Positions 7,766 to 26,030 are shown, counted from the first letter of the stretch. The stretch is DNA of 32,000 bases from Aeropyrum pernix K1 (GCF_000011125.1 NC_000854.2:150001-182000); one strand, 5' to 3'. Made by a program: numbers and translations. The notes: a model not told the origin generated them from the sequence alone.

Positions 7766-8482
7766 CTACCTCTTCCTCCTCCCAGTCCTCCTGGCAGCTA
7801 TATGGCCCACCTTCCTTCCAGGCGGGGCCGTCCTGGCGACTGTGGAAGGCCTGCCCTTATGCTGGTGCCTCCCGCCTCCGAAGGGGTGGTCTACGGCGTT
7901 CATAGCCACACCCCTAACCCTAGGCCACTTCCTAGCCTTAACCTTCCACTTGTGGTATGCGAAGCCAGCCTTCATTATAGGCTTCTCTATCCTACCCGCA
8001 CCCGCTGGTATGCCGATGGTTGCCCTAGAGTCGTTGGGGACCTCTTTATCCTTCCCGCTGGGCAGCCGTAGAATGGTCTTGGCGCCAGCCCTACCCACCA
8101 CTAGGGCGTAGCTCCCGGCTTGTCTGGCCAGCTTGCCGCCGTCTCCAGGCCTGAGCTCGACGTTGAATACTTCCGTGCCCTCGGGTATTTTGCCTAGGGG
8201 GAGTATGTTGCCAGCCTCCGGCTTTGCAGCGGGCCCGATCTCTATAATCTGCCCGACGTACATTCCCTCAGCAGCTGGCATGAGAAACTCTACGCCATCC
8301 TCCCTCACAACCCTGGCAAGCGGCACATAGCGGCCGGGGTCGTGTATCAGCTCTACTACCTTTCCTCTTAAAGTGTCTCCTGAAAGTGGGGGGTATTTAG
8401 CCGGGCCCGGGTGTATATGGGCCCTGCTTCGATACGTCGGCGTTCCCCTGCCGGCCCTCTGCTGCCTCAGCCTCTTGCCCAT
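7766..8482 (-). CDS. rpl2: 50S ribosomal protein L2 (uL2)
   Basis: MGKRLRQQRAGRGTPTYRSRAH..., GDGGKLARQAGSYA, AMNAVDHPFGGGRHQHKGRPSTV and the basic C-terminus are diagnostic for archaeal uL2. A GGAGG lies just upstream of the ATG. Confidence 0.95.
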   Translation of the reverse strand: MGKRLRQQRAGRGTPTYRSRAHIHPGPAKYPPLSGDTLRGKVVELIHDPGRYVPLARVVREDGVEFLMPAAEGMYVGQIIEIGPAAKPEAGNILPLGKIPEGTEVFNVELRPGDGGKLARQAGSYALVVGRAGAKTILRLPSGKDKEVPNDSRATIGIPAGAGRIEKPIMKAGFAYHKWKVKARKWPRVRGVAMNAVDHPFGGGRHQHKGRPSTVARTAPPGRKVGHIAARRTGRRKR

Positions 8483-8494
8483 GCCTCCTACACC

Positions 8495-9880
8495 CTACCC
8501 TTCAACCCCATTGGTGCCCCGGGCCTTTTTAAGGTATTCATTGAACGGTGGTATCCTTACTGTTTGGAGCCTACCACCGGGCATCCTAACAACGGCCTCT
8601 CCGACGCCCAGCTCTACGAGCCCACCCCCGACGCCCAGCCGTGAAACTGACTCGACGTAGCCTCTGGCCTTCCCACCGAATGCTGCAACAACCCCTGCGT
8701 TAAACTCGATAGCCTCAGGCAGATCTCCTGGAGACTGTGTCGCGAAAACGCCGTATAGCCCCCGGCTCCTACCTTCCCTAGCTATACCCTCAAAGAACGA
8801 TGTCGAGCGGGAGAGCCTCCAGGCCTCGTCGACTATGAGCACAAGCCTACCCCTCCCCCCCGGCGATAAGGCGTACTCGACTAGAGAGGATGCTACCGCC
8901 TGCGCCGCAGCGTTCCTATCACTTCCCTCGAGCCGTCTTAGGCTGTAGACGGTGAGAGGGGATACAGGCGGTATGGTAGCCCCGGGGACGGGCAGCTGAC
9001 CGGTATCCCGCGGCTCTAGCAGGAAGGTTGTAAGAGGCTCAAGCAGCTCCGCCAAGTCGCCCTTAGGGTCTACGACGACAACCCCAAGAGGATCGCCTTC
9101 AACCTCTGACAGGAGCGCCAGCTGAACAGCCAGTCCGGCTAGGAGAACGGTTTTCCCCCTGCCAGTAGGGCCTACGACCAGCATGTGAGCCTCCAAATCG
9201 CGGGGCCAGCGTAAAGCGACGGGACCGCCCGTCTCAGCGGATACCCCCAGTAGGATCTCGCCTCCCCGGGGTATGCTCCCCTCAGGCCTGAACCGGGGGT
9301 TTAGGTGCCTTGCCCCCGCTTCCGCCAGGGACGCGGGAGACCAGTCGCCCGCTACAACATCGAACTTTACACCTACCTCTGCTTCGAGCATCGACTTGAA
9401 CTGTATGGCCTTACTATCGTCTGCGCCTTCCTCTATCCAGACGACTGCACCGAGCCTGCCTAGCCTGGGGGATCCCGTGGCAACGGCCTCCTTATAGAGG
9501 GACTCTAGTAGTGCAAGAGCAGACCTATACCTCCCTAGCCTTGTTGTCGAGTATTTGAATTCTACTCTCTTTATCTCCTCCTCGAGAGTCTCCACGAGCC
9601 TGGACTTCTCCACAGGTATGTAGCTGTAGAATATGGAGACTGGAGCAGGAGTCCGCATAGCAAGGGAGTATAGCCTATCTCCCAATCCCTCAACGTTCTC
9701 CGGATTATCTCTAGCTAGAAGGACAACGGGCCTCCTCGAGCCTTCCTCACCCTCAACCCTGAGGAGCTTACCAGCCCTCCGTGACAGTATTGCAGCCCTG
9801 TTCGACAAGGTTTTCCTATATAGCAAGCCGGCCGCCGCTGACATTATTATGATTGTTACTATATCTATTGCGCCAGGCAC
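8495..9880 (-). CDS. cedB: membrane-anchored FtsK/HerA/VirB4-type P-loop ATPase (CedB-like)
   Basis: N-terminal hydrophobic helix IDIVTIIIMSAAAGLLY. Walker A GPTGRGKT (9149..9172), VVVDPKGD, Walker B LVLIVDEAW (about 8825..8850) and FATQSPGDL. The GTG start lies 20 nt after the stop of the upstream membrane gene. Confidence 0.8.
   Translation of the reverse strand: MPGAIDIVTIIIMSAAAGLLYRKTLSNRAAILSRRAGKLLRVEGEEGSRRPVVLLARDNPENVEGLGDRLYSLAMRTPAPVSIFYSYIPVEKSRLVETLEEEIKRVEFKYSTTRLGRYRSALALLESLYKEAVATGSPRLGRLGAVVWIEEGADDSKAIQFKSMLEAEVGVKFDVVAGDWSPASLAEAGARHLNPRFRPEGSIPRGGEILLGVSAETGGPVALRWPRDLEAHMLVVGPTGRGKTVLLAGLAVQLALLSEVEGDPLGVVVVDPKGDLAELLEPLTTFLLEPRDTGQLPVPGATIPPVSPLTVYSLRRLEGSDRNAAAQAVASSLVEYALSPGGRGRLVLIVDEAWRLSRSTSFFEGIAREGRSRGLYGVFATQSPGDLPEAIEFNAGVVAAFGGKARGYVESVSRLGVGGGLVELGVGEAVVRMPGGRLQTVRIPPFNEYLKKARGTNGVEG
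8526..8532 (-). promoter_or_regulatory. candidate TATA element for rpl2, embedded in the last codons of the upstream ATPase gene
   Basis: The minus strand reads ATACCTTAAAAAGGCC (codons YLKKA of the ATPase). TTAAAAA is centred about 47 nt upstream of the rpl2 ATG, which would leave a ~20-nt leader containing GGAGG. Confidence 0.3.
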
Positions 9881-9900
9881 GCCAAACCCCCCAGCTATCC

Positions 9901-11259
9901 CTACATAATCTTGAGTCTCAGCCTGGCGCCTCCGCCCAGCAGTCTAGCCAAGCCTGTAGTCGCCACTAGGAGGATTGACAGGTACATGCCCGGGAGGGTT
10001 ATGTAATAGACTATTATCATCTTTAAAACGTCGAGCGTTATATAGTCTAGGAGGCTAACTAGCGTCTCGGAATAATCCTTTGCAATCCTCTCTAAACCGG
10101 CGTCAGCGTCACAGTCCCCCCACTTCTCCACCCAAACTACTATCCTTCCCTCCCCACTGGGCTCTACATAGACATACTCTCCCTTCAGCCCCTCCCATGT
10201 CCAGCTGCCCTCGCCCCTCACATCACCCTCTCTGACACTATATTGGGGTTTACAGCCCTCTAGCCAAGCTATCTCAACGTAGTCTCCATCCTTCAGCCCC
10301 TCCCAGCTGGCGACAACTCCCTCCTCTCCCTCGGTAACTCTGGCTGGCTGTTTGCTTCCATACACCATAACACTCTCTCCCCCCATGAAGGCTATGTGGG
10401 GAACGTGCAGTTCGATGCTTGTTCCAGCGGTCGACGTGTCTAGGGCTGGCGGGTCAGGCTTGAAAGTGACTCCCATATACTCGAGTGTGAACGAGACCAG
10501 GCCGAGGGGTGCCTGCACCCTGGGGATCTTGACGAGTGAACTGTAGGCTACTCCGCCTTTAACTACGTAGCTCGCCACCTCCTCACCCCCGCTGTGGATT
10601 CTTAATAGACCTGCCTCTACTACCCCGCTGCTGCTTGTAACGGTAATCCTACCAACCCATACGCCCTCAGCTCCAGCCACAGCCGGAGGGTCTCCTATGG
10701 ATTCGACGAAAAGGGGGAGAGCGGGTAGGGCTGCGTTAAACACTATGACAAAGGCTATAAGCCAGGCCCCCGCTGGCTTGGCCACCCTGAAGGGTACTGC
10801 ATAGAGGAGGACGCCCAGGCTGAGAAGGATCTGACTATATCCGAGTAGATACTTAAGCCCCAGGACTGTGGCCGCTAGGAGAGTGACGGCCCAGGAGAGC
10901 TCGTCCATAACCGACGCTGCGGCAGAAGCAAGAGGCTTGAGAGCCTCGAGAGGGTCGGGGAGGCTAGTTACTAAGCTGGAAAGCGCCTTCAGGGAAGCGG
11001 CAAAAACGACTGCGTCAAAGAGCCAGGCGTCCAGCTGGGGCCAAGAACCGCCTATAAGGAGCTGGAGGTAGCCAGCTACTGCGATTAGCGCCGCAGCCGT
11101 AAGTGCTAGGAGAGCCGCTATTAGAGAGTCCTCGACCAGCGTTGACGCCCACCTCTTTATAGAAGAAGCGGGGATGGGTGCAGCGTAGATAAGTACTCCA
11201 AGGTAGAATCCAAGCATAGCAAGCTTGAACGCCAGTAGTTGGAGGTCACCACCCTCCAC
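9901..11259 (-). CDS. cedA: polytopic membrane protein (6 N-terminal TM helices, ~210-aa soluble beta-rich insert, 1 C-terminal TM); VirB6-like/CedA-like
   Basis: By eye, hydrophobic stretches lie at aa 8-27, 44-68, 78-98, 121-140, 142-157, 164-184 and 412-435. Residues ~190-400 are hydrophilic and rich in V/G/E/S/T. The GTG start is 5 nt after the stop of the small pilin-like gene. Confidence 0.7.
   Translation of the reverse strand: MEGGDLQLLAFKLAMLGFYLGVLIYAAPIPASSIKRWASTLVEDSLIAALLALTAAALIAVAGYLQLLIGGSWPQLDAWLFDAVVFAASLKALSSLVTSLPDPLEALKPLASAAASVMDELSWAVTLLAATVLGLKYLLGYSQILLSLGVLLYAVPFRVAKPAGAWLIAFVIVFNAALPALPLFVESIGDPPAVAGAEGVWVGRITVTSSSGVVEAGLLRIHSGGEEVASYVVKGGVAYSSLVKIPRVQAPLGLVSFTLEYMGVTFKPDPPALDTSTAGTSIELHVPHIAFMGGESVMVYGSKQPARVTEGEEGVVASWEGLKDGDYVEIAWLEGCKPQYSVREGDVRGEGSWTWEGLKGEYVYVEPSGEGRIVVWVEKWGDCDADAGLERIAKDYSETLVSLLDYITLDVLKMIIVYYITLPGMYLSILLVATTGLARLLGGGARLRLKIM
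10182..10305 (-). repeat. exact 16-nt direct repeat ccttcagcccctccca (10182..10197 and 10290..10305), 108 nt apart, inside the cedA-like gene
   Basis: Read directly from the sequence. The copies encode the duplicated peptide W(E)GLK(D)G..Y: SWEGLKDGDYVEI at aa 318-330 and TWEGLKGEYVYVE at aa 354-366, exactly 36 codons apart. Confidence 0.9.
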
Positions 11260-11264
11260 GGCAG

Positions 11265-11528
11265 CTAACCTCCGCCGAGGAGGACCTCGTTCACAATGCC
11301 CGCCAGCCTAACTATCACGGCGAACACGGTAGTCCCTAGAGCCAGCCAGAGAGCCGCCCACATCGAGTCCTCAATAAGGCTGTTGCCGACCCGCTTAATC
11401 CTAGACGAGGGGATCGGGCTCCCCCTAAGCGTCCACCCTATACTCCAGGAGAGGAGGAAGAGGGCCCATGCCAACGCCGTAAGCTTCCCCGTCAGGTCCT
11501 CAACCATCTGCACTATGTCTGCAGCCAT
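11265..11528 (-). CDS. cedA1: 87-aa two-helix membrane protein, VirB2/TraA-pilin-like (CedA1-like)
   Basis: Two hydrophobic helices (LTALAWALFLLSWSIGWTL and MWAALWLALGTTVFAVIVRLAGIV) are joined by a basic loop (RGSPIPSSRIKRVGN). It is the first gene of a tightly spaced three-gene array and has an ATG start. Confidence 0.65.
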   Translation of the reverse strand: MAADIVQMVEDLTGKLTALAWALFLLSWSIGWTLRGSPIPSSRIKRVGNSLIEDSMWAALWLALGTTVFAVIVRLAGIVNEVLLGGG

Positions 11529-11596
11529 ACGCCCCCCCAGTAGAGTGGAGTTAGTGAGGTCCTGTGGGTGGGGGGTGTCGGACGTGTGTGCGGGTC

Positions 11597-11621
11597 GAGT
11601 AAAAGTTTGGCTTGAGTAAAA
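11597..11621 (-). promoter_or_regulatory. two copies of TTTTACTC (minus sense) 17 nt apart, in the spacer upstream of the pilin-like gene
   Basis: gagtaaaa occurs at 11597..11604 and 11614..11621 on the + strand. These are the only AT-rich elements in the 103-nt spacer between the prpB-like stop (11632) and the cedA1-like ATG (11528). They could be TATA/BRE elements, an operator, or a T-tract terminator for the upstream gene. Confidence 0.3.
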
Positions 11622-11631
11622 CGTGGGGGGC

Positions 11632-15931: not shown

Positions 15932-16188
15932 AGCCTGAGGAGGTAATAATTAGGGTATACGTAACGGAGAAGACCACTAGGATGCTCGAAGAGGAGAACA
16001 CCCTGACATTCATAGTAAGGAGGGAGGCCACGAAAAACGATGTGAAAAGGGCCGTGGAACAGCTCTTCGGGGTGAAGGTGGAGAAAGTTCGCACCCTCAT
16101 AACGCCGCGCGGATATAAGAAGGCTTACGTCAAGCTAGCGCCAGAGTATAAGGCCCTCGATGTGGCCACGAAGCTAGGAGCAGTATAG
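15928..16188 (+). CDS. rpl23: 50S ribosomal protein L23 (uL23)
   Basis: [59 protein letters not shown] is typical uL23. An ATGA overlap couples it to rpl4. Confidence 0.92.
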
Positions 16189-16215
16189 CTCATACCATCC
16201 CTAATCCTCTCTTCA

Positions 16216-16220
16216 TTTTT
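16216..16220 (+). terminator. T5 tract 28 nt after the rpl23 stop; candidate archaeal oligo-T terminator
   Basis: cttcatttttagc. No + strand gene follows, and the next gene is convergent. Confidence 0.3.
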
Positions 16221-16379
16221 AGCAGTGATTTGCGCATCAACTAGCCCTAGCGACACCCTGCCCCGGCCTCTTGGAAGTCTATCTCAACACAATTACCAGT
16301 GTCCCGAAGAACTGGGAATCAAGGACAATCGAGAGGGAAAGAATATTGCTGCTAGAGCAGGAGCATTGTCCGAGCGCCT

Positions 16380-17309
16380 CTACTCCATCTGGGGACCCCA
16401 CGCAGGAGGCTTTGGGCCTAGCTTCTCAACTATCTCTATTATCCTGCGGGCTATCTTAAGGAACTCTCTCGAAGCTTCGCTCTCTGGATTCTCTAGGAAG
16501 AATATTTTGCCTTTATCGTTCGACTCTCTTATCGCAGGGTCTATGGGTATTTTGCCGAGGAGTTCTATACCATACTGTGACGCGATCTCCTCAGCCGCGC
16601 CGCGGCCGAAGATATAGTGTATGGATCCGTCGCTACACCTAAAGTAGCTCATGTTCTCGACTATTCCTATCACAGGGGCTTCTATCCTCTTGGCAAAGCT
16701 GACAGCCTTCTTAACGACAGACTTAGCTATCTCGCTGGGTATCGTGACTACCAGGAAGCCCGTTATGTTGGGTATTATCTGGGTTATCGTGAGGACCTCA
16801 TCACCTGTTCCCGGAGGTAGGTCTATGAGGAGATAGTCGAGTTCTCCCCAGTCGACGTATGCAAGCAGCTCTCTGATGGCACTCGTCTTTATGGCCCCTC
16901 TCCAGATTAGGGGCACCTCATCCATGGGCAGCAACAGCCCTATGCTAGCTACTTTAATTCCCGGAGGAACTTCCACGGGCTTTACAGTGCCGTCGAGCTG
17001 CGAGGGCATACCCATGCCCGTCTGGAGGCCGAGCATTTTATGAACGCTAGGACCGCTTATATCTGCGTCAAAAACTCCAACCCTTCGCCCCTCCGCAGCG
17101 AGGGCTGCCGCGAGGCTAGCGGTAACAAAGCTTTTCCCCACACCTCCTTTCGTGCTTATAACAGCTATCTTGTACCTAATCCTCCTCATATTCCTAACTA
17201 TCTTCATCTGCTGCTCCTGAATTGTCTTCATCCGCTCCGCGATAGCCTTGTACTCACTCCTACTTACCCTGAATCCCTTAGAAGCTCTGCCACCCTCCTG
17301 AGTAGACAA
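16380..17309 (-). CDS. Mrp/NBP35/ApbC-family P-loop ATPase (Fe-S cluster carrier-like)
   Basis: Deviant Walker A ISTKGGVGKSF, DADISGPS, LLIDLPPGTGDE and IVENMSYF. The start could be one of the internal Met codons before aa 41. Confidence 0.85.
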   Translation of the reverse strand: MSTQEGGRASKGFRVSRSEYKAIAERMKTIQEQQMKIVRNMRRIRYKIAVISTKGGVGKSFVTASLAAALAAEGRRVGVFDADISGPSVHKMLGLQTGMGMPSQLDGTVKPVEVPPGIKVASIGLLLPMDEVPLIWRGAIKTSAIRELLAYVDWGELDYLLIDLPPGTGDEVLTITQIIPNITGFLVVTIPSEIAKSVVKKAVSFAKRIEAPVIGIVENMSYFRCSDGSIHYIFGRGAAEEIASQYGIELLGKIPIDPAIRESNDKGKIFFLENPESEASREFLKIARRIIEIVEKLGPKPPAWGPQME

Positions 17310-17423
17310 GAAATTACCCCTCCTACTATCTGAGTAAGCATTTGAAGCTATTTATCAAGGATATATGGATGGGAAGCCGGGATGGGACAGCCAATAGGGG
17401 GGTTGGCATAAAAGGGTGTTGCC

Positions 17424-18287
17424 CTAGAGCCTTCTACGCACTCTTCGCGAAGATACTATAGCCTGGAGGACCTCAACCTTGGTCACCACGCCTAATACAT
17501 TATCGCCGTCAACCACAGGCAGGATCCCTACTCCCTCCTTAACCATTATATCTGCTGCCTTCGCAAGGTCCTCCTCCGGCTCCACTGTAATGGGGTTTGG
17601 AGTCATAACGTCCTCTGCTAGGGGTACGAGGTATACCCTGGTCGAGCCTATTCTATCCTTGTAAACTAATGGCTTCTTTATCTTGACATATTTTGGAGCT
17701 CCATGAACAGATACTGGTGTTGCTAGGAAGGCTATATCCCTCTTGGTTATAACTCCGACTAGCTTGCCTCCGTCGAGGATTAAAACCTTCCCAGTGGCAT
17801 CTATCTCCATAAGCTTCAGAACATAGAATATACTGTGCTCCCTCCGCGCCTTGGCGTATATTTCACGCATAAACTCTTTTACTAGGTTTACGCCCTTCAT
17901 CTTCTCTGAGTAGTATCTCGTGAGGTCAGTCCTCGTTATAATGCCCTCCAGCGTGCCGTCTGGCGCCACTACGGGTACGCCACCTATGTTATGTTTCAGC
18001 ATTAGCGAGGCAGCAGTCTTAACGCTCTTAGTGCCCTCTATAGTCACGACATCTCTAGCCATAACCTCTCTCACGTATATCGAGTTAGCCGGCCTGCTAG
18101 GATATTTTCTAACCAGCGCATCGGCTATATCAGTTATCGTTATTATCCCCCTAAGCTTGGAACCCTCCACAACCGGTAGCCTGCTAATATCGTGTGTAAG
18201 CATTAACTTCCTAGCGTGGGCGAGCGTGTCGTCAGGGCTTACAGTATACACATCCCTCGTCATGTAGGATACTACTCGAGAGGCCAC
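17424..18287 (-). CDS. CBS-domain-only protein (four CBS motifs), 287 aa
   Basis: The unit (V)MTRDV.TV..D..L..A..LM..H.I..LPVV....L.GIIT..DI recurs four times. Confidence 0.8.
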   Translation of the reverse strand: MASRVVSYMTRDVYTVSPDDTLAHARKLMLTHDISRLPVVEGSKLRGIITITDIADALVRKYPSRPANSIYVREVMARDVVTIEGTKSVKTAASLMLKHNIGGVPVVAPDGTLEGIITRTDLTRYYSEKMKGVNLVKEFMREIYAKARREHSIFYVLKLMEIDATGKVLILDGGKLVGVITKRDIAFLATPVSVHGAPKYVKIKKPLVYKDRIGSTRVYLVPLAEDVMTPNPITVEPEEDLAKAADIMVKEGVGILPVVDGDNVLGVVTKVEVLQAIVSSRRVRRRL

Positions 18288-19309
18288 TATCTTTCACCCT
18301 CAACGACCGACGCGACTAGAACGTCCCTCTCCGTTATTATCCCCTTGGCCTCGCCGCCATCAACCACTATAAGGCTGTCTACGCCGAGTTCGACCATCCT
18401 CCTCGCAGCGTCAGCCACACTAGCCTTCTCATCTATGGTATACACCTCTGGCGACATCACCATGTAGACTGGGATTGATATAGCCTCGCTCACCTTACCG
18501 CTAGGGGCGTTTTTGAAAGCCTCGTGCTCGCCGAAGTAGGCTACAATGTCCTTGGCTGTTATAACACCCTTGATCTCGCCTGTCGATGATGAAATCACTA
18601 GAAGCCTCCTGAACCCATATGTGACCATAGACCTCATAGCCTCCTTAAGCGGTGCTTCAGGATCTACACCCACTATTGTTGCCGTCATGTAGTCGCCCAC
18701 TTTTTTGTCAAAGGGTATATCAGCTATCCTACCTAGTATGTTCCTCTCTGTTATGACCCCATGTAGGGTGCCATCGTCATAGAGTACAGGGAGGAAGCCA
18801 ATACCCTCCCCAACCATTATCCTAAGTATCGTGTCTAGATCGTCTGAAACACTCACCGCTATAGGGTGTCTGTTCATTATGGTTGCCACTACTTCCTTCC
18901 TCAGAGCGCTGTATATGCTGTCTCTATGCCGGTTCTCAACAATCTGGAAGTAATCGCCCCCGCCCAGGTAGTTGACTAAATCGGTGGCGAGGAGTATACC
19001 TTCTAGCACAGCGTCGCCGCTGCCCTTGATAACCACTAGGCCTCTAACTCTGTGAGAGGCTATCTTCTCGGCTGCTGAGAGTATGGGAGCGGATTTGTGT
19101 ACACTAACTGCTGGCCTTGAAGCCAGCTCTTTGGCATCTCCGGGCAGCCGTCTCACCCGCTGGCTCCAATTGGGAGTACCGTCAGCCCTTAGCCACCTAA
19201 CACCCTCTGGCCTAGACCTGGTCACAACGCGGCTGGGTTTCGGTGCTGTAGCTACATATCTTATAGGCGGTCTCGGGGGTCTACTTGGAGCTCCCCCCCT
19301 CCTGCTCAT
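18287..19309 (-). CDS. CBS-domain protein (four CBS motifs) with a ~70-aa Arg/Pro-rich N-terminal extension, 340 aa
   Basis: CBS repeats such as IMNRHPIAVSV...GFLPVLYDDGTLHGVITERNIL. The N-terminus is MSRRGGAPSRPPRPPIRYVATAPKPSRVVTRSRPEG. Its stop overlaps the downstream CBS gene start by 1 nt. Confidence 0.75.
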   Translation of the reverse strand: MSRRGGAPSRPPRPPIRYVATAPKPSRVVTRSRPEGVRWLRADGTPNWSQRVRRLPGDAKELASRPAVSVHKSAPILSAAEKIASHRVRGLVVIKGSGDAVLEGILLATDLVNYLGGGDYFQIVENRHRDSIYSALRKEVVATIMNRHPIAVSVSDDLDTILRIMVGEGIGFLPVLYDDGTLHGVITERNILGRIADIPFDKKVGDYMTATIVGVDPEAPLKEAMRSMVTYGFRRLLVISSSTGEIKGVITAKDIVAYFGEHEAFKNAPSGKVSEAISIPVYMVMSPEVYTIDEKASVADAARRMVELGVDSLIVVDGGEAKGIITERDVLVASVVEGER

Positions 19310-19345
19310 CCATCCATCACCTCCAACAAGGAAATGTGCCTCCCA

Positions 19346-20182
19346 TTATAAAGACGCCCTTCCTCGGCTCTTAAAGTAAAGCCTTACTAGATCCTCCCTA
19401 TCAATAATTCCTGTGAGAACCCTAGAGTCTCGAGACTTGACTACGGGAACCCTCCCGACCCCACGGTCTAACATGATCCTCGCAACATCCTCTAGATTAT
19501 CCGACTCAGCCACATAAATTACAGAGCGGGTCATTACGCTCTCCACCCTAACCCTGTGAGGCGGTGCCTCGCTCTCCAGACCCAGCCTTGTGTAACCCTT
19601 CCTTATCAAATCGTACTGTGTTACTATACCCCTCACAACCATCCTCTGGTCTACCACCGGAACTCCAGCGTACCTCCTCTCCACCATTATTTCCCACACA
19701 CGGGTAAGACTATCACCCTCCAGCACGTACTCCACATCCCTAGTCATAGCGTCGCTCGCCGTGTAGCCCCTGTAGAACCCTGCTTCCAGGAGTAGCCTAA
19801 TGGGAGTCTCGAGACCCAGGACGCCGACTAGCCTGTTGGCATCGTTCACAACGGGAGCATACCATTCGTCGAACTTTAACATTGAAAATACCGCCTCCTC
19901 CAGGCTGTAGCTGGGCTTCAGAACTACTGCTGGCTCCTCCATGATATCTAGAGCCTTAGCCTCACTCTTCCTACTGGTAACGAGGATCACCGACGACCTG
20001 TATATGACCCCCTCAAGCCTGCCCTCACCGTTAACCACGAGAACTATCCTCGAGCCCGTGTCCCTCAGAATCCTCCTTATCTCTCCTATAGGCGCCTCCT
20101 TCTCCACTGTAACGGGTTTTAACAGGTTAACCTCGAACAGCTTCCTCTGTAAAAATCTGGAAGGCTGCGCCAGCCTCTCCAC
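19346..20182 (-). CDS. CBS-domain-only protein (four CBS motifs), 278 aa
   Basis: CBS repeats such as VMTRSVIYVAESDNLEDVARIMLDRGVGRVPVV...LTGIIDREDL. GTG start. Confidence 0.8.
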   Translation of the reverse strand: MERLAQPSRFLQRKLFEVNLLKPVTVEKEAPIGEIRRILRDTGSRIVLVVNGEGRLEGVIYRSSVILVTSRKSEAKALDIMEEPAVVLKPSYSLEEAVFSMLKFDEWYAPVVNDANRLVGVLGLETPIRLLLEAGFYRGYTASDAMTRDVEYVLEGDSLTRVWEIMVERRYAGVPVVDQRMVVRGIVTQYDLIRKGYTRLGLESEAPPHRVRVESVMTRSVIYVAESDNLEDVARIMLDRGVGRVPVVKSRDSRVLTGIIDREDLVRLYFKSRGRASL

Positions 20183-22755: not shown

Positions 22756-23021
22756 AGAGCCTCACCTCAAGCCTAGAGGTACATAAGGCCCCGGGGAGGG
22801 CTTAACTTAGTCTACTAACCAGTATGCTCCCGTATTTACAGCCTGGCTTATCTTCGCAGGCGGCGGCTCGGTTGGTCCGTGAAAATGTCATAGCCCCCTG
22901 GGCAGGATTAGGGCTCTTTCTACCCAGCGGATCTCATCGCCGCCAATATAAGTAGATAGGGGAATAGGGGAGAGAAAAGAAGGTTTGCTTATTGAGGGAG
23001 GAGGATTATTAGAGTGAGGGG

Positions 23022-23447
23022 TTACTGCACCTCCTCGTAGCTCTGCAGCCTCTTACCGTGTATCCTCTCGATCACAGGGATTATACCTGGGTTCTTGATC
23101 TTTGGTATCTCCTCGACGGGCACGTACTGGGGCAGGGAATATCTCGTATGCGTTAGCTCTGCAATAATATTCCTGGCCTTAAGGCTGCTAAGTATCTTCC
23201 TAAGCCTGTCCTCTCCGACTATGCCGGAGAATATCTTCTTAAGGTCACGCCAGGAGAGAGGCTGCTTTGCCTCGTCGAGTGCTATGAGGACTAGTCTCAC
23301 TACGTCATCGTCAACAAGGGCAGTATAGACGCTAATCTCTGCATCCTCGATAACAACTTTCATTTTCTCGAACTCCTCTAAAATTTTCCTCCTAACCCTC
23401 TGAATTACCTCCTCTTCCGCCTCGTACTTCTTCACTAGCTGGCTCAT
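23022..23447 (-). CDS. hypothetical protein, possible winged-helix DNA binder, 141 aa
   Basis: ATG ORF preceded by AT-rich TATA-like sequence (23461..23491). The central PLSWRDLKKIFSGIVGEDRLRKILSSLKARNIIAEL looks like a wHTH. The N-terminus is a charged coiled-coil-like helix. Confidence 0.5.
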   Translation of the reverse strand: MSQLVKKYEAEEEVIQRVRRKILEEFEKMKVVIEDAEISVYTALVDDDVVRLVLIALDEAKQPLSWRDLKKIFSGIVGEDRLRKILSSLKARNIIAELTHTRYSLPQYVPVEEIPKIKNPGIIPVIERIHGKRLQSYEEVQ

Positions 23448-23559
23448 ATCCAGCCACCGAATAATATATAGGGTGCAACCTCTATATTAACTTAAAATTA
23501 ATAAGCCTTGTGGGACAACGGTGTATCAAGCGCTGTCAAATCAAGTTTATAAAAGGGTT

Positions 23560-23886
23560 TTAGGCTATGCTGGCGGTCTCGCGGGTAGTGGTAGCGTCAG
23601 CTCTTATCTCGTCTTCTTCACCAACACCGGATAGGTACTCGAGGATCTCGGCCAAATCGCTTGCTACGATTCTTCTAGCCGCTGTGAGCACGATGTAGTC
23701 TATCACATCCTCCTCTTCACTGCCGAGCAGGGCTATCTCGCTGTCAATCTCTAACGCTTTCCGGGACAACGTCACTAGCTCCCTGTATAGGACAGGGCTG
23801 GCAATCCTCCTGGAGACACCGCTCTCCACGGGGACTCCACCAACGGTGATGTTTAGCTTAGAAATGCTCGTAGGGAAGACAGGCAC
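23560..23886 (-). CDS. hypothetical protein, 108 aa
   Basis: ATG ORF in the same orientation as its neighbours, with an acidic helical C-half. No motif recognised. Confidence 0.4.
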   Translation of the reverse strand: MPVFPTSISKLNITVGGVPVESGVSRRIASPVLYRELVTLSRKALEIDSEIALLGSEEEDVIDYIVLTAARRIVASDLAEILEYLSGVGEEDEIRADATTTRETASIA

Positions 23887-24024
23887 GTATTTACCCCGTA
23901 ATCCGTATGTGCAAGAGGAGATAATGCTTAGACAAGCAGGTGGTCCAAACGGTTGTCAAATATAGAGGCTAGAAGCCCGGGGTATAGTCCCGAGGACACC
24001 CGGGGCCTGAAGGCCTCCGGAGGA

Positions 24025-24555
24025 TCATTTTTGCTTCAGGGGCTCTACCACGAGCTCTATAACATCGCCCTTCACTGTTACAGTAGCCTTGCTCTTCCTC
24101 GCGGTTAAGATTCCCATGGTGAACGGAAATGTTATAACATTGAGGCTAACATCCCCCTCAGCCCTCACCTTCAGCTTCGCTGACTTTAGCCTCCCTCCTT
24201 TAGGTAGCTTCAGCGTCACTATCTCGGAATCCACTTCAAACTTGATAGATATTATGTCTCCCTGCAGCTCTACCCTGTTGCTGCCGCTCTCCACCTTAGC
24301 GACCTTCTCACCCAGAGTGTCGACCTCGTACCTGGAGCCCGCGCTATATACTTTCACCAGGTCCTCGTTTACATACTCTACCTCAGGATGCTGGGAGAAG
24401 TAAGCGCTGACCCTCACGCTTCCAGGCTCGATTTCAGCGCTGAGACCGCTCGTACCTACTAGAAGTGTGTGGCTAGCCTCGTACCTCCTCCCTGACACGA
24501 GGACCTTCGAGTTGTCCACGTCCACCTTAACCCTCTGCTCGTTCTTAAGCAGCAT
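24025..24555 (-). CDS. hypothetical beta-rich protein, 176 aa
   Basis: ATG ORF with an alternating V/K/E/S pattern suggesting an all-beta fold. No signal peptide or TM segment seen. Confidence 0.5.
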   Translation of the reverse strand: MLLKNEQRVKVDVDNSKVLVSGRRYEASHTLLVGTSGLSAEIEPGSVRVSAYFSQHPEVEYVNEDLVKVYSAGSRYEVDTLGEKVAKVESGSNRVELQGDIISIKFEVDSEIVTLKLPKGGRLKSAKLKVRAEGDVSLNVITFPFTMGILTARKSKATVTVKGDVIELVVEPLKQK

Positions 24556-24774
24556 ACCCCATTCGCCTCTCTATCCCCAATATACCCTTAATCCTACCAG
24601 ATTGATAACTATTTCTACGGTACACCCGGATCTCGCAGATCCCTTTTGGATTCAAAGGTATCTGCCGGTGTTACCCTGTTCTCGAGAGACCTCGCGGAAT
24701 CGTTTCATAGTTAATACCCGAGGCTTACATATAGTTCTTTTATCGAAGCTGTACATACGAGGTAGAAGCTTACT

Positions 24775-25065
24775 ATGGCTGGTGAGGAGATACCGGAGGA
24801 CGTGTTTGAAGATCTTGAGCTGGCAAAGAGTGAGGTGGAGAAGGAGCTGGAGAGGGCTAGGGGGAAGAGGAAGAGGAGGTACCCCAGTAACAGCGACATT
24901 GCGGAAGCCATAAAAGAGCTGGCGGGATATGCGAGGGTTGACCCCCAAAGCTTCCCTGAGAGGGTTAGAGAGAAGCTTGAGGAGCAAGGCTTCTACACAG
25001 GCCTCGTCACAGACGAGAGAATCTGGAGAGTCTACGAAACATTACTCAGAAAAGGGGAGATATAG
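24775..25065 (+). CDS. hypothetical charged helical protein, 96 aa
   Basis: ATG ORF with TATA-like catatag/cttttatc 25-50 nt upstream. A second gene follows after 40 nt. Confidence 0.45.
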   Translation: MAGEEIPEDVFEDLELAKSEVEKELERARGKRKRRYPSNSDIAEAIKELAGYARVDPQSFPERVREKLEEQGFYTGLVTDERIWRVYETLLRKGEI

Positions 25066-25105
25066 AAGGCAATAACAGGGCTAAAGCCGTTGAAGAACTC
25101 CCAGG

Positions 25106-25429
25106 GTGTTATGGGTCTTGGGAGAATGCTACTTCTGCCTCTCCAAGGCGTCCCACAGTTGCCGCTTGTGCGGTAGGCCTGTGTGTGACACCCACGGTGG
25201 TGGAGGTGTTTGTGTGGCGTGTAGGGAGGCTATCTGCGCCGTATGCGGGAGGGAGCTTGCGGTCTCTTACTGCTCCGGCTGCGGCAGGCTTGGATGTGTC
25301 GACTGCCTAGTGCAGTACGATCCTGTGAGGCGTTTCTGCCGGGACTGCTTAGCCCGAGGAGCTTCCGAGTTCAAGCCGGAGGCCCTGGAGCCTCTTAAGA
25401 AGGTTGTTAGAAGAGTGTTTGGGTCGTGA
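25106..25429 (+). CDS. cysteine-rich multi-zinc-ribbon protein, 107 aa
   Basis: 15 Cys in the first 81 residues. They form seven CxxC pairs (C8/11, 19/22, 36/39, 44/47, 56/59, 64/67, 78/81) plus CxxH (C27/H30). GTG start. Confidence 0.55.
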   Translation: MLWVLGECYFCLSKASHSCRLCGRPVCDTHGGGGVCVACREAICAVCGRELAVSYCSGCGRLGCVDCLVQYDPVRRFCRDCLARGASEFKPEALEPLKKVVRRVFGS

Positions 25430-25436
25430 ACGGGTC

Positions 25437-25883
25437 TTAGCTTGTGTATGCCTTGAGGGCCCTGTCTATGTAGAGCTGTATTATGTTTGATGGCCTAACC
25501 CCTTCCAGATACTCCTTGTACACCACCTCACCATTCTTAACTGCGAACACGGCGATAGTTGGGCTAGCCCCTATCCTATAGTGATTGAAGCTCTCTGCAG
25601 CCGCTTTAGAGCTGCAATTCTGTGAGAACCAGTCGCAAAGGACGACTACGAACTTCACCCTGCTATCGCCAGAATACTTGCTTACAACCTCGAGCCAGTA
25701 GCGGTCCTGCAGCCTACACGCAGGGCAAAGAGCGTTGTCAAAATAAACAACAACAACGCCGTCACCCAGCTCCTTAGGATCGAGAGCGCCCCCATCAACC
25801 CTATGCAGCCTCCAGCCCCCGTCCTCCGGATTATAGACATATATGCCGTGCTGAGAGCCCGGGCCGGGAACCTTAGTCTCCAT
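25437..25883 (-). CDS. thioredoxin-fold protein with a CPAC active-site motif, 148 aa
   Basis: VVVYFDNALCPACRLQDRYWLEVVSKY... and SPTIAVF (cis-Pro region) fit a thioredoxin-like fold. TTTATA (25902..25910, minus sense) lies ~23 nt upstream of the ATG, suggesting a leaderless transcript. Confidence 0.65.
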   Translation of the reverse strand: METKVPGPGSQHGIYVYNPEDGGWRLHRVDGGALDPKELGDGVVVVYFDNALCPACRLQDRYWLEVVSKYSGDSRVKFVVVLCDWFSQNCSSKAAAESFNHYRIGASPTIAVFAVKNGEVVYKEYLEGVRPSNIIQLYIDRALKAYTS

Positions 25884-26030
25884 CTACAACCACCCACACG
25901 GTATAAAGCCTCCTCCAAGCCTAATAGGGAGTATCTGCATAACGGCCAAGAGATCCTTCGTGCAGGAGCGGACAGCATACAGGGAGGCTTGAAATAAGGG
26001 TTTCAGGCTATATCATGCTATTAACATGGT

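Follow-up and report, generated by a model that had tools for sequence, protein, structure and literature searches.

Three co-oriented genes on the minus strand of the Aeropyrum pernix K1 chromosome encode proteins of 87, 452, and 461 aa (positions 8495-11528 of the 32,000-nt stretch analyzed here, hereafter the window) and raise the question of whether they form a machine that moves DNA between cells and, if so, of which kind. They make up the Ced (crenarchaeal exchange of DNA) locus that has already been published for A. pernix K1, a known system. A preliminary description had proposed a chromosomal, conjugation-derived DNA-transfer module of the Aeropyrum Ced type rather than a plasmid system, and this core inference held, since the locus is the source of the solved pilus.

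The published Ced locus and its surroundings

ORF coordinates and a reading of the sequence recovered the layout given at the outset, three co-oriented genes with spacers of 5 nt (CTGCC, cedA1 to cedA) and 20 nt (cedA to cedB). The features of the locus, from low to high coordinate, are as follows.

7766..8482, minus strand: rpl2 (ribosomal protein L2; Pfam Ribosomal_L2_C, E 5.9e-45), directly downstream of cedB
8495..9880, minus strand: cedB (APE_0219), membrane-anchored ATPase of the FtsK-HerA superfamily, assigned by sequence as a short CedB orthologue, 461 aa, GTG start
8729-8743, minus strand: CedB ATQSP motif (translation)
8819..8845, minus strand: CedB Walker B, LVLIVDEAW (translation)
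9056-9070, minus strand: CedB DPKGD motif (translation)
9149..9172, minus strand: CedB Walker A, GPTGRGKT (translation)
9818..9874, minus strand: CedB N-terminal TM anchor, residues 3-21 (hydropathy peak 1.91)
9901..11259, minus strand: cedA (APE_0220), polytopic membrane protein, presumed VirB6-like channel or platform, 452 aa, GTG start
10066..10701, minus strand: CedA insert, residues 187-398, between TM6 and TM7; all-beta, acidic, probably extracellular
11056..11250, minus strand: CedA N-terminal two-helix hairpin, residues 4-68, paralogue of the CedA1 pilin
11265..11528, minus strand: cedA1 (APE_0220a), VirB2-like pilin, 87 aa, ATG start (PDB 8DFU identity, NCBIfam)
11529..11631, minus strand: intergenic region of 103 nt upstream of cedA1, presumed promoter (sequence reading)

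The genes are real: all three products have deposited A. pernix K1 counterparts with 100% identity (APE_0219, APE_0220, and the PDB 8DFU chain), and conserved orthologues of each gene recur in seven other genomes with the order unchanged. In CedA1, a basic loop, RGSPIPSSRIKR, joins two hydrophobic helices, and hydropathy and translation agree with the pilin-like architecture first described for this protein. Over residues 2-85, the protein and PDB 8DFU chain B are 100% identical (E 1.4e-49), and CedA1 passes the curated NCBIfam model Ced_CedA1 (NF041797; 119.3 bits versus a cutoff of 100, E 5.4e-35). APE_0220a is named as the pilin of the pilus that Beltran et al. 2023 solved by cryo-EM, which is 8DFU (PMC9905601). 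Membership of CedA1 in the lipid-containing pilus comes from sequence identity to the 8DFU chain, the structure experiment itself being that of PMC9905601. The A. pernix pilus is extracellular, helical, lipid-containing, and hollow, with a continuous lumen that admits ssDNA and not dsDNA (PMC9905601). This structure is the only experimental result for the A. pernix Ced system; the organism is not genetically tractable, and DNA transfer has never been shown there (PMC9905601). The pili came from cultured cells, and the accessible text of the published account mentions neither UV treatment nor induction (PMC9905601).

Downstream, a 12-nt spacer, GGTGTAGGAGGC, separates the cedB stop codon from rpl2, with which cedB is possibly co-transcribed. 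The cedB-rpl2 adjacency recurs in A. camini, Pyrolobus, L084, L085, and L086. The order cedA1-cedA-cedB is kept in A. camini, Acidilobaceae, Pyrolobus, and four other MAG or metagenome contigs, with housekeeping genes as the annotatable flanks, and the module adjoins ribosomal-protein genes in all genomes examined (8/8). In K1, the flanks are rpl2, a PEP-mutase-family gene, an RNA methyltransferase, L3, and L4. Upstream of cedA1, two direct copies of TTTTACTC lie at 11614-11621 and 11597-11604; no conservation of this repeat was seen in A. camini. Pfam scans of 30 of the larger ORFs of the window indicated that its other genes are housekeeping genes, and only one classical Walker-A ORF of at least 90 aa was found in the window. 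Both observations are consistent with the earlier statement that the window contains no relaxase, VirD4-type protein, VirB8-11 component, or prepilin peptidase.

CedA and CedB as divergent family members

CedA consists of six N-terminal helices, a nonmembrane insert (approximately residues 187-398), and a single C-terminal TM helix, for a total of seven TM helices. Hydropathy and the AlphaFold2 model (mean pLDDT 72; 57-82 in the TM part) thus reproduce the topology originally read from the sequence, namely, six TM helices, an insert of ~210 aa, and a terminal TM helix. The NCBIfam model Ced_CedA (NF041796) matches CedA at E 2.4e-31 and 109 bits, under its 330-bit equivalog cutoff, and aligns residues 6-189 with model positions 7-192, i.e., the first six TM helices. 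The newer Pfam family PF27251 ("CedA1") matches CedA and its orthologues. The N-terminal hairpin matches the 8DFU chain by phmmer (E 2.2e-5) and by family profile (2.9e-7), and Foldseek aligns it with the 8DFU pilin at a probability of 0.99, with 39% identity over 72 columns; this paralogy was reported before in PMC9905601. With six to seven TM helices, a CedA1-like hairpin, and a gene directly downstream of cedA1, the protein is, by sequence comparison, a homologous yet divergent member of the CedA family.

Of the earlier designation of this protein as VirB6/CedA-like, the CedA part stands (NCBIfam, PF27251), whereas direct likeness to VirB6 was not recovered by profile or Foldseek and derives from the literature, where it was obtained by HHpred (via TedA) and AlphaFold superposition (PMC9905601, PMC11868833). 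TrwI was absent from the top 50 Foldseek PDB matches, and the CedA profile matched 8DFU alone among PDB sequences, with no VirB6. The hhalign probability against R388 TrwI was 0.4% in a comparison of a shallow CedA alignment (Neff 2.5) with a single TrwI sequence. The insert is confidently modeled (pLDDT mostly 86-91 in the block of residues ~201-380, β-strands throughout) and carries a charge of +17/-32; by the positive-inside rule, it probably lies outside the cell. It contains the sole cysteines of CedA, Cys336 and Cys383, both of which are conserved. The insert is homologous between Aeropyrum and Acidilobaceae-type CedAs but has no such homology with the CedAs of Pyrolobus or L087. No confident structural match was found for it; a faint likeness to phage tail-fiber and spike proteins was observed.

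CedB begins with a hydrophobic helix that is present in 58 of the 61 members of the APE_0219 clade, and its motifs occupy invariant or nearly invariant columns among 51 homologues. In Walker A, six of eight columns (G237, P238, T239, G240, G242, and K243) are invariant and T244 is nearly so, while D351, E352, A353, and W354 of Walker B are invariant. Hydropathy, translation, and alignment therefore bear out the N-terminal membrane helix and every motif quoted in the preliminary description (Walker A, DPKGD, Walker B, and ATQSP). The AlphaFold2 model of CedB (pLDDT 84) matches HerA, TrwK, and FtsK in Foldseek at 1e-10 to 1e-8; because HerA, VirB4, and FtsK score about equally (TrwK at 1e-10, no better than HerA), the fold cannot separate VirB4 from HerA/FtsK. 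The VirB4 model TIGR00929 matches weakly (E 0.001, 17 bits), and the hhalign match to TrwK (E 2.5e-4) spans the Walker B core only. Placement of the ATPase in the CedB branch of the FtsK-HerA superfamily was upheld; the VirB4 likeness also claimed for it was not reproduced by profile or Foldseek and derives from the literature, which argues for such a likeness in the N-terminal domain. CedB belongs to the HerA clade of this superfamily (PMC11868833), and the fold that it shares with HerA is common to the two at the superfamily level only. Asking whether the ATPase clusters with HerA rather than with VirB4/CedB, as proposed at the start, is thus an ill-posed test, both because CedB itself lies within the HerA clade and because the Foldseek scores are about equal.

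CedB scores 45.9 bits against the NCBIfam model NF041017 and does not reach its cutoff of 700, but this model is a narrow equivalog, against which full-length CedB-like proteins of other Desulfurococcales reach just 220-260 bits. Scores far under the equivalog cutoffs (109 versus 330 bits for CedA and 46 versus 700 bits for CedB) mark both proteins as divergent. The database entries for APE_0219 and APE_0220 still read "hypothetical protein," and the NCBI CedA and CedB models miss both. The present analysis supports annotating APE_0219 as CedB and APE_0220 as CedA.

Alternative readings and the proposed mechanism

The 461-aa ATPase could instead be a VirD4-like CedD or a HerA/FtsK-type motor for repair or segregation whose position beside cedA is incidental. 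Its best PDB sequence match is TrwB/VirD4 (E 2e-4), hhalign scores R388 TrwB (3.5e-7) better than TrwK/VirB4 (2.5e-4), the Pfam matches (FtsK, DUF87, and HerA_C) are weak, and the NCBIfam CedB model gives just 46 bits. However, the TrwB, TrwK, and Pfam matches are confined to the Walker A or Walker B core. When the APE_0219 clade was aligned by hhalign with the CedB-like cluster, the match had a probability of 100 and an E value of 1.5e-60 over 429 columns (residues 42-446, N-terminal domain included), compared with 3e-33 over 354 columns, and a weak N-terminal domain, for the CedD-like cluster. In an exhaustive HMM search, CedB-like proteins scored 83-182 bits, versus 82-98 bits for CedD-like proteins. 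APE_0219 has no match to the CedD model NF053655 at E<=1, and true CedD-type genes lie elsewhere in two Aeropyrum sp. MAGs. As for a HerA-NurA helicase, the sole HerA-named NCBIfam match was to an anti-phage HerA model (E 0.033), and the NurA, Mre11, and Rad50 families were not found among the window ORFs scanned with Pfam; the near-universal N-terminal helix of the clade likewise speaks against these assignments. In Pyrolobus, the slot between cedA and rpl2 is filled by a cluster-0 CedB-like gene, as is the same position in L086 and L087. Taken together, profile comparison and conserved gene order show APE_0219, as judged from sequence, to be a short CedB orthologue and not CedD, HerA-NurA, or FtsK, and we regard the other assignments as very improbable.

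Two other readings concern the module as a whole. One is that an integrated conjugative plasmid or ICE uses it as its transfer apparatus and would thereby export its own DNA, in the manner of bacterial conjugation. Its parts do resemble VirB2, VirB6, and VirB4, and Sulfolobales do have conjugative plasmids (PMC9905601). Nevertheless, no integrase, relaxase, replication gene, or tRNA attachment site was found in the window, the GC content is even across the ced locus, and the flanks are the genes named above, from rpl2 to L4. Moreover, the same neighborhood occurs in Aeropyrum, Acidilobaceae, Pyrodictiaceae-type, and other lineages, which is not expected of a mobile element, and this origin appears extremely improbable. 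The other reading accepts the conjugation ancestry but assigns the present organelle in A. pernix to attachment (adhesion, biofilm formation, or cell contact), without DNA movement. A DNA-transfer assay is nonexistent for A. pernix (PMC9905601), the Ups aggregation pili are missing (PMC9905601), and the pili came from cultured cells with UV treatment unmentioned in the accessible text (PMC9905601), unlike the UV-induced ced genes of Sulfolobales. The probably extracellular, lineage-variable β-domain of CedA, with its faint resemblance to tail-fiber and spike proteins, would also suit attachment. Yet the pilus retains a continuous, ssDNA-wide lumen (PMC9905601), a translocase-type membrane-anchored ATPase has been kept in tight linkage, and homologues are needed for DNA import in two Sulfolobales species (PMC11868833, PMC11823120). 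An attachment organelle is therefore unlikely, and the two roles, adhesion and DNA transfer, could coexist.

Our main reading, with a probability of roughly 0.85, is that the locus is a chromosomal Ced system, a domesticated T4SS/conjugation derivative in which a CedA1 pilus, a CedA platform, and a CedB motor would import ssDNA, with CedD probably encoded elsewhere. Published cryo-EM has shown the step in which CedA1 and membrane lipids polymerize to give a hollow pilus of the VirB2-like kind. On the grounds of homology, topology, and Sulfolobales genetics, CedA would be the membrane platform or channel, with seven TM helices in an N-out/C-in orientation and the ~210-aa β-domain projecting outside the cell at the pilus base. 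CedB would be a HerA/VirB4-like hexameric ATPase that a single N-terminal helix tethers to the membrane, and it may power pilus assembly and/or draw DNA inward. By analogy with Sulfolobales, the machine would import chromosomal ssDNA of a neighboring cell for recombinational repair and would probably also need the second ATPase, CedD, from elsewhere in the genome. For A. pernix, the substrate is extrapolated from the same analogy, as is the direction in which it would move (import, export, or both). Sulfolobales cannot import DNA without CedD, a membrane ATPase likened to VirD4 (PMC11823120, PMC11868833), and two Aeropyrum sp. MAGs encode CedD-type proteins (213 bits) at loci without other ced genes; on both counts, the notion of a minimal module "with all parts contiguous" is out of date.

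It is conceivable, but doubtful, that the Aeropyrum/Acidilobaceae-type Ced is a distinct variant, whose CedA gained a lineage-variable, disulfide-bonded extracellular β-domain and whose ced genes became embedded in a ribosomal-protein cluster directly upstream of rpl2. The β-domain might then be an S-layer-spanning pilus base, or a partner-cell recognizer replacing the missing Ups pili, and could serve a function comparable to that of the VirB5 adhesin or of the VirB6 periplasmic loop. Embedding in the ribosomal cluster would, on this variant, make the DNA-uptake pilus constitutive and in step with growth, not present only after DNA damage.

Comparison with known systems

Publications of 2016, 2023, and 2025 described the Ced system, in which archaea have domesticated conjugation machinery so as to take up chromosomal DNA for repair. 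The present locus supplied the pilus structure, and our analysis adds no new system: nothing differs from the Ced of A. pernix K1 (8DFU, PMC9905601), which is the same locus with identical pilin, APE_0219, and APE_0220. In its accessible text, PMC9905601 treats the pilin in detail and A. pernix CedA just as a seven-TM protein. The CedA β-domain, the shortened CedB, and the ribosomal-gene neighborhood are not discussed in the accessible text of the published accounts, PMC9905601 among them, and offer leads to how Ced works without Ups pili and how it is regulated.

The Sulfolobales Ced (Saci_0569 CedA1, Saci_0568 CedA, Saci_0567 CedA2, Saci_0748 CedB, and Saci_0667 CedD) has homologous CedA1, CedA, and CedB and shares with K1 its chromosomal location, membrane-anchored ATPase, and cedA1-cedA order. 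Deletion of cedA, cedA1, cedB, or cedD abolishes DNA import in Sulfolobales (PMC11868833, PMC11823120), the one group in which cedB is known to be required for it, and in S. islandicus CedA1 and CedE contribute to export too (PMC11868833). In contrast to S. acidocaldarius, where the cedB locus tag is distant, K1 cedB is part of the cluster, 20 nt past cedA, and CedA2 is missing, given this 20-nt spacer (PMC11868833). K1 CedA, with its ~210-aa insert, has 452 aa versus the 259 positions of the CedA model, while K1 CedB has 461 aa versus 590 model positions and lacks ~100 residues found between Walker A and Walker B in other CedB-like proteins. Because A. pernix has no Ups pili, which bring Sulfolobales cells together (PMC9905601), the cell-contact step must differ. 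The ced genes are UV induced in Sulfolobales, whereas the accessible account of the A. pernix pilus makes no mention of UV induction (PMC9905601).

The Ted system of Thermoproteales (TedC pilin 8DFT, TedA, TedB, and TedD) shares the logic of a chromosomally encoded pilin, polytopic protein, and VirB4-like ATPase (PMC9905601). Sequence similarity between Ced and Ted components is not recognizable, however, and the TedC signal peptide is cleaved (PMC9905601). Ted loci also carry ParA/VirC1-like, Rad50, and HerA genes (PMC9905601), which were not found beside K1 ced.

With bacterial T4SS (R388 TrwL/VirB2, TrwI/VirB6, TrwK/VirB4, and TrwB/VirD4), Ced shares a homologous pilus architecture with stoichiometric lipid (PMC9905601), and the K1 ATPase and TrwK have a common FtsK-HerA fold (Foldseek E 1e-10). 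Similarity of K1 CedA to TrwI was not detectable by Foldseek or hhalign, and the matches of the ATPase to TrwK and TrwB extend no further than the Walker B core. Unlike bacterial T4SS, the window contains, among the ORFs scanned, no homologues of VirB3, VirB5, or VirB7-11 and no relaxase. Finally, Ced imports DNA, according to Sulfolobales genetics, whereas bacterial conjugation exports it.

Gene layout and identity of the ced module

The ced module lies on the minus strand at 8495 to 11528 and consists of three genes:

cedA1 (APE_0220a), 11265-11528, minus strand, 87-aa protein
cedA (APE_0220), 9901-11259, minus strand, 452-aa protein
cedB (APE_0219), 8495-9880, minus strand, 461-aa ATPase

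These ORFs and their spacers (5 nt between cedA1 and cedA, 20 nt between cedA and cedB) match exactly, in coordinates and strand, those of the preliminary description, a sequence-only reading that had proposed a Ced-type module of VirB2-, VirB6-, and VirB4/HerA-like genes. Its protein architectures also agree with hydropathy and AlphaFold2 predictions: CedA1 has two hydrophobic helices connected by the basic loop RGSPIPSSRIKR; CedA has six transmembrane (TM) helices, an ∼212-aa nonmembrane insert (residues 187 to 398), and a last TM helix; and CedB has a P-loop ATPase preceded by a single N-terminal TM helix. Translation places all four ATPase motifs quoted there at the expected coordinates, in alignment columns with complete or near-complete conservation among 51 homologues.

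Residues 2 to 85 of CedA1 are 100% identical to the sole chain ("Pilin protein") of PDB entry 8DFU, the cryo-EM structure of the A. pernix CedA1 pilus. The 452- and 461-aa proteins are 100% identical to A. pernix K1 APE_0220 and APE_0219, respectively, both deposited as "hypothetical protein." Beltran et al. (2023; PMC9905601) described APE_0220a, under the name CedA1, as the building block of a pilus that contains lipid and is a homologue of bacterial conjugative pili, and they read Ced as a domesticated type IV secretion system (T4SS); the A. pernix ced loci are drawn in Figure 1a of PMC11823120. Given these identities and the published APE_0220a pilin, the locus is a rediscovery, and the ced locus of A. 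pernix is already known from publications; the genus proposed in the preliminary description was also correct. The Ced-type interpretation is supported, with two corrections: the module is incomplete, and the criterion setting VirB4 against HerA was ill-posed.

Family models agree to different degrees. CedA1 scores above the NCBIfam curated cutoff (119 versus 100 bits). CedA matches the NCBIfam CedA model with an E value of 2.4e-31 across its first six TM helices; the score of 109 bits falls short of the equivalog cutoff of 330 bits. Pilin and CedA orthologues alike are annotated with a newer Pfam family, PF27251 ("CedA1"). The pilin and the N-terminal hairpin of CedA are paralogous, as retrieved by phmmer against the 8DFU chain (E value, 2.2e-5), by the family profile against PDB sequences (E value, 2.9e-7), and by Foldseek (probability, 0.99; 39% identity). 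This relationship was reported previously (PMC9905601).

Assignment of the ATPase

Two ATPases are used by Ced: CedB, described as VirB4-like, and CedD, described as VirD4-like or of the HerA clade. According to two papers from 2025, each is essential for DNA import, and Sulfolobales, Acidilobales, and most Desulfurococcales have both (PMC11868833, PMC11823120). Because APE_0219 scores just 46 bits on the NCBIfam CedB model and finds TrwB (VirD4 of plasmid R388) as its top match among PDB sequences, the choice between CedB and CedD was tested explicitly. An exhaustive HMM search with a profile of 51 sequences from the APE_0219 clade supplied the hits; 184 homologues were clustered by BLAST and labeled by NCBIfam anchors. 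The APE_0219 clade (cluster 1) comprises 61 sequences, 58 of which have an N-terminal TM helix. The CedB-like cluster (cluster 0) holds 70 sequences, with ∼600-aa members aligning with the CedB model along its entire length at 220 to 260 bits, and the CedD-like cluster (cluster 3) holds nine sequences scoring 209 to 227 bits on the CedD model.

By hhalign, the APE_0219 clade aligned with the CedB-like cluster over 429 columns (probability, 100; E value, 1.5e-60), covering residues 42 to 446 and thus the entire N-terminal domain. Alignment with the CedD-like cluster spanned 354 columns (probability, 99.9; E value, 3e-33; residues 92 to 447), and the N-terminal domain aligned weakly. In Pyrolobus fumarii, the cluster 0 gene Pyrfu_1647 fills the slot between cedA and rpl2; APE_0219 occupies the same slot and is therefore its positional orthologue. 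Clustering, NCBIfam anchors, profile-profile comparison, and synteny together reject the CedD assignment that the TrwB match had prompted. Between Walker A and Walker B, the longer CedB-like proteins have ∼100 residues with no counterpart in APE_0219 and its clade; in the hhalign alignment, the gap falls around APE_0219 residues 299 to 312. The missing insertion accounts for a length of 461 aa against the 590 positions of the CedB model, and it probably also explains why the NCBI CedB model misses APE_0219.

Structure comparison was less discriminating. A Foldseek search with the AlphaFold2 model of APE_0219 (pLDDT, 84) retrieved HerA, TrwK/VirB4, and FtsK with similar E values (1e-10 to 1e-8), and Foldseek was consequently rejected as a means of telling these three apart. 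The check proposed in the preliminary description thus places the ATPase in the FtsK-HerA superfamily and does not choose a clade within it. Assignment to HerA rather than to VirB4/CedB had been put forward there as a refutation; since CedB itself is classed within the HerA clade (PMC11868833), this opposition does not hold.

CedA and the relationship to bacterial T4SSs

A fold or profile link between CedA and VirB6, as expected from the preliminary description, was not recovered: TrwI, the VirB6 of R388, was not among the top 50 matches of the Foldseek PDB search; the CedA profile retrieved nothing past 8DFU from PDB sequences; and hhalign against TrwI, with a shallow CedA alignment, gave a probability of 0.4%. 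Because of that shallow alignment and a TM model of moderate confidence, we regard these negatives as detection failure rather than counterevidence. The published CedA-VirB6 link was obtained by HHpred via TedA and by AlphaFold superposition (PMC9905601, PMC11868833). The CedB ATPase matches R388 TrwK and TrwB across the Walker B core only. Ced is tied to conjugation most strongly by the pilus structure.

The CedA insert (10066 to 10701; residues 187 to 398) is modeled by AlphaFold2 as an all-beta domain with block pLDDT values mostly of 86 to 91. It is acidic (+17/-32) and carries both cysteines of the whole protein, each of which is conserved. Across the CedA family, the basic segments are loops 1 and 5 and the C-terminal tail, consistent with the positive-inside rule; this charge pattern suggests an N-out/C-in topology in which the insert is probably extracellular. 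By hmmsearch, the insert is homologous between Aeropyrum and Acidilobaceae-type CedAs (E values of about 1e-30 to 1e-78), and homology is undetectable in the equally long CedAs of Pyrolobus and of a metagenomic locus (L087), which have a different, unrelated domain of similar size at this position. Foldseek gave no PDB match below an E value of 0.01, only weak Ig-like folds. Matches in a viral structure library were likewise not confident: the likeness to phage tail fibers and HHIV-2 VP17 (TM-scores around 0.15) is a hint only.

Within the insert-coding region, an exact 16-nt direct repeat occurs at 10182 to 10197 and 10290 to 10305, 108 nt apart. It encodes a doubled WEGLK-G-(D/E)Y strand motif (residues ∼321 to 329 and ∼357 to 364); a regulatory role was rejected in favor of this coding duplication, which suggests that part of the predicted beta-domain was duplicated internally. 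Separately, in an A. camini assembly with a 95,999-bp contig, cedA is split into two ORFs (P0071 and P0065), one of 197 aa with the TM part and one of 252 aa with the insert and TM7. The complete A. camini genome (AP012489) has a single 451-aa gene (L081, 3622 to 4977), and the split likely stems from a sequencing error or frameshift in one of the assemblies or from differences between strains.

Chromosomal setting and completeness of the module

In 8/8 genomes examined, the ced module adjoins the L3-L4-L23-L2-S19 ribosomal cluster. In six of the eight (K1 included), it lies directly upstream of rpl2 in the same orientation, with rpl2 next after cedB: the window (7766 to 8533), A. camini (L081, 6392 to 6405), Pyrolobus (L083, 6593 to 6617), and the metagenomic loci L084 (5392 to 5407), L085, and L086. 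The K1 gap is 12 nt, and the spacer GGTGTAGGAGGC includes GGTG and GGAGG, which resemble Shine-Dalgarno sequences. Both Aeropyrum species have a TATA-like CTTAAAAAGG in the 3' end of cedB (8524 to 8533 in K1, 50 nt upstream of rpl2), and rpl2 may therefore be driven by its own promoter embedded in cedB. Neither this linkage nor the CedA insert is discussed in the Ced papers cited here (PMC9905601, PMC11823120, PMC11868833). Residual novelty is limited to these two features, the putative extracellular domain of CedA and the linkage to ribosomal-protein genes; both are leads rather than findings.

Upstream of cedA1, TTTTACTC occurs as two direct copies (11597 to 11604 and 11614 to 11621; 17 nt start to start), 76 and 93 nt from the start codon, which could be promoter or operator elements. 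TTTTACTC is not conserved in A. camini, which has ACTTTC twice there; the upstream motif is thus not shared by the two species. The UV-response A(N)TTTC motif is absent from Sulfolobus ced loci, and its assignment to the ced promoter was rejected given this absence and the differing Aeropyrum elements.

A mobile-element origin was rejected on the gene content of the window and the conserved neighborhood. When the 30 other window ORFs were scanned against Pfam, all gave housekeeping families or no family match, and 0/30 matched a mobile-element (e.g., integrase) or DNA-transfer family. The families found were ribosomal proteins L2, L3, and L4, methyltransferases, a PEP-mutase-family enzyme, M16 and M50 peptidases, PdxS and PdxT, menaquinone-synthesis genes, CBS-domain proteins, and an Mrp/NUBPL-type ATPase. 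The window contains no tRNA gene or Rfam match, GC content is even along the ced locus, and the cedA1-cedA-cedB order and neighborhood are kept in 7/7 other genomes examined.

Other features of the window were recorded:

16380-17309, minus strand, Mrp/NUBPL-type P-loop ATPase (Pfam PF10609 "ParA," 295 bits), just past the L3-L4 genes
17424-20182, minus strand, three consecutive genes whose products are built of multiple CBS domains
16000-19000 and 23000-25900, lower GC content (0.49 to 0.52 versus 0.55 to 0.58 elsewhere in the window)

The Mrp/NUBPL-type gene comes after L23 in an Acidilobaceae locus (L082). A ParA/VirC1-like gene is present in Ted loci (PMC9905601); the product here looks like an Fe-S carrier type, not a VirC1/ParA partner of a transfer system. 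Four short ORFs (23022 to 23447, 23560 to 23886, 24025 to 24555, and 25437 to 25883) in the 23000 to 25900 stretch had no Pfam match, and this stretch may be a poorly characterized region or a small variable one.

The preliminary description considered the module minimal, with all parts contiguous. This view is contradicted by the presence of only one classical Walker A ORF (of at least 90 aa) in the whole window and by CedD at separate loci. Scanning the genome collection with the CedD-like alignment gave 263 loci; the best 80 of the 263 were inspected and include two "Aeropyrum sp." MAGs whose CedD-type proteins (524 and 532 aa) reach 213 bits with the CedD model but only 31 to 42 bits with the CedB model. 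Genes for cedA1, cedA, or an APE_0219-type protein were found at 0/80 of these best loci, which argues that CedD is encoded apart from the module. K1 is absent from the best 80 of 263, and we infer that it would carry CedD.

With 20 nt between cedA and cedB, K1 leaves no room for CedA2, in agreement with the literature (PMC11868833). A hydrophobic ORF of 49 to 55 aa lies between cedA and cedB in Pyrolobus (L083, 4837 to 5004) and in the metagenomic loci L086 (361 to 510) and L087 (3844 to 4011). This ORF sits at the position of Sulfolobales cedA2, and those loci have the longer cluster 0 CedB-like ATPase, whereas in Aeropyrum and Acidilobaceae-type loci a short spacer is all that lies where Sulfolobales have cedA2.
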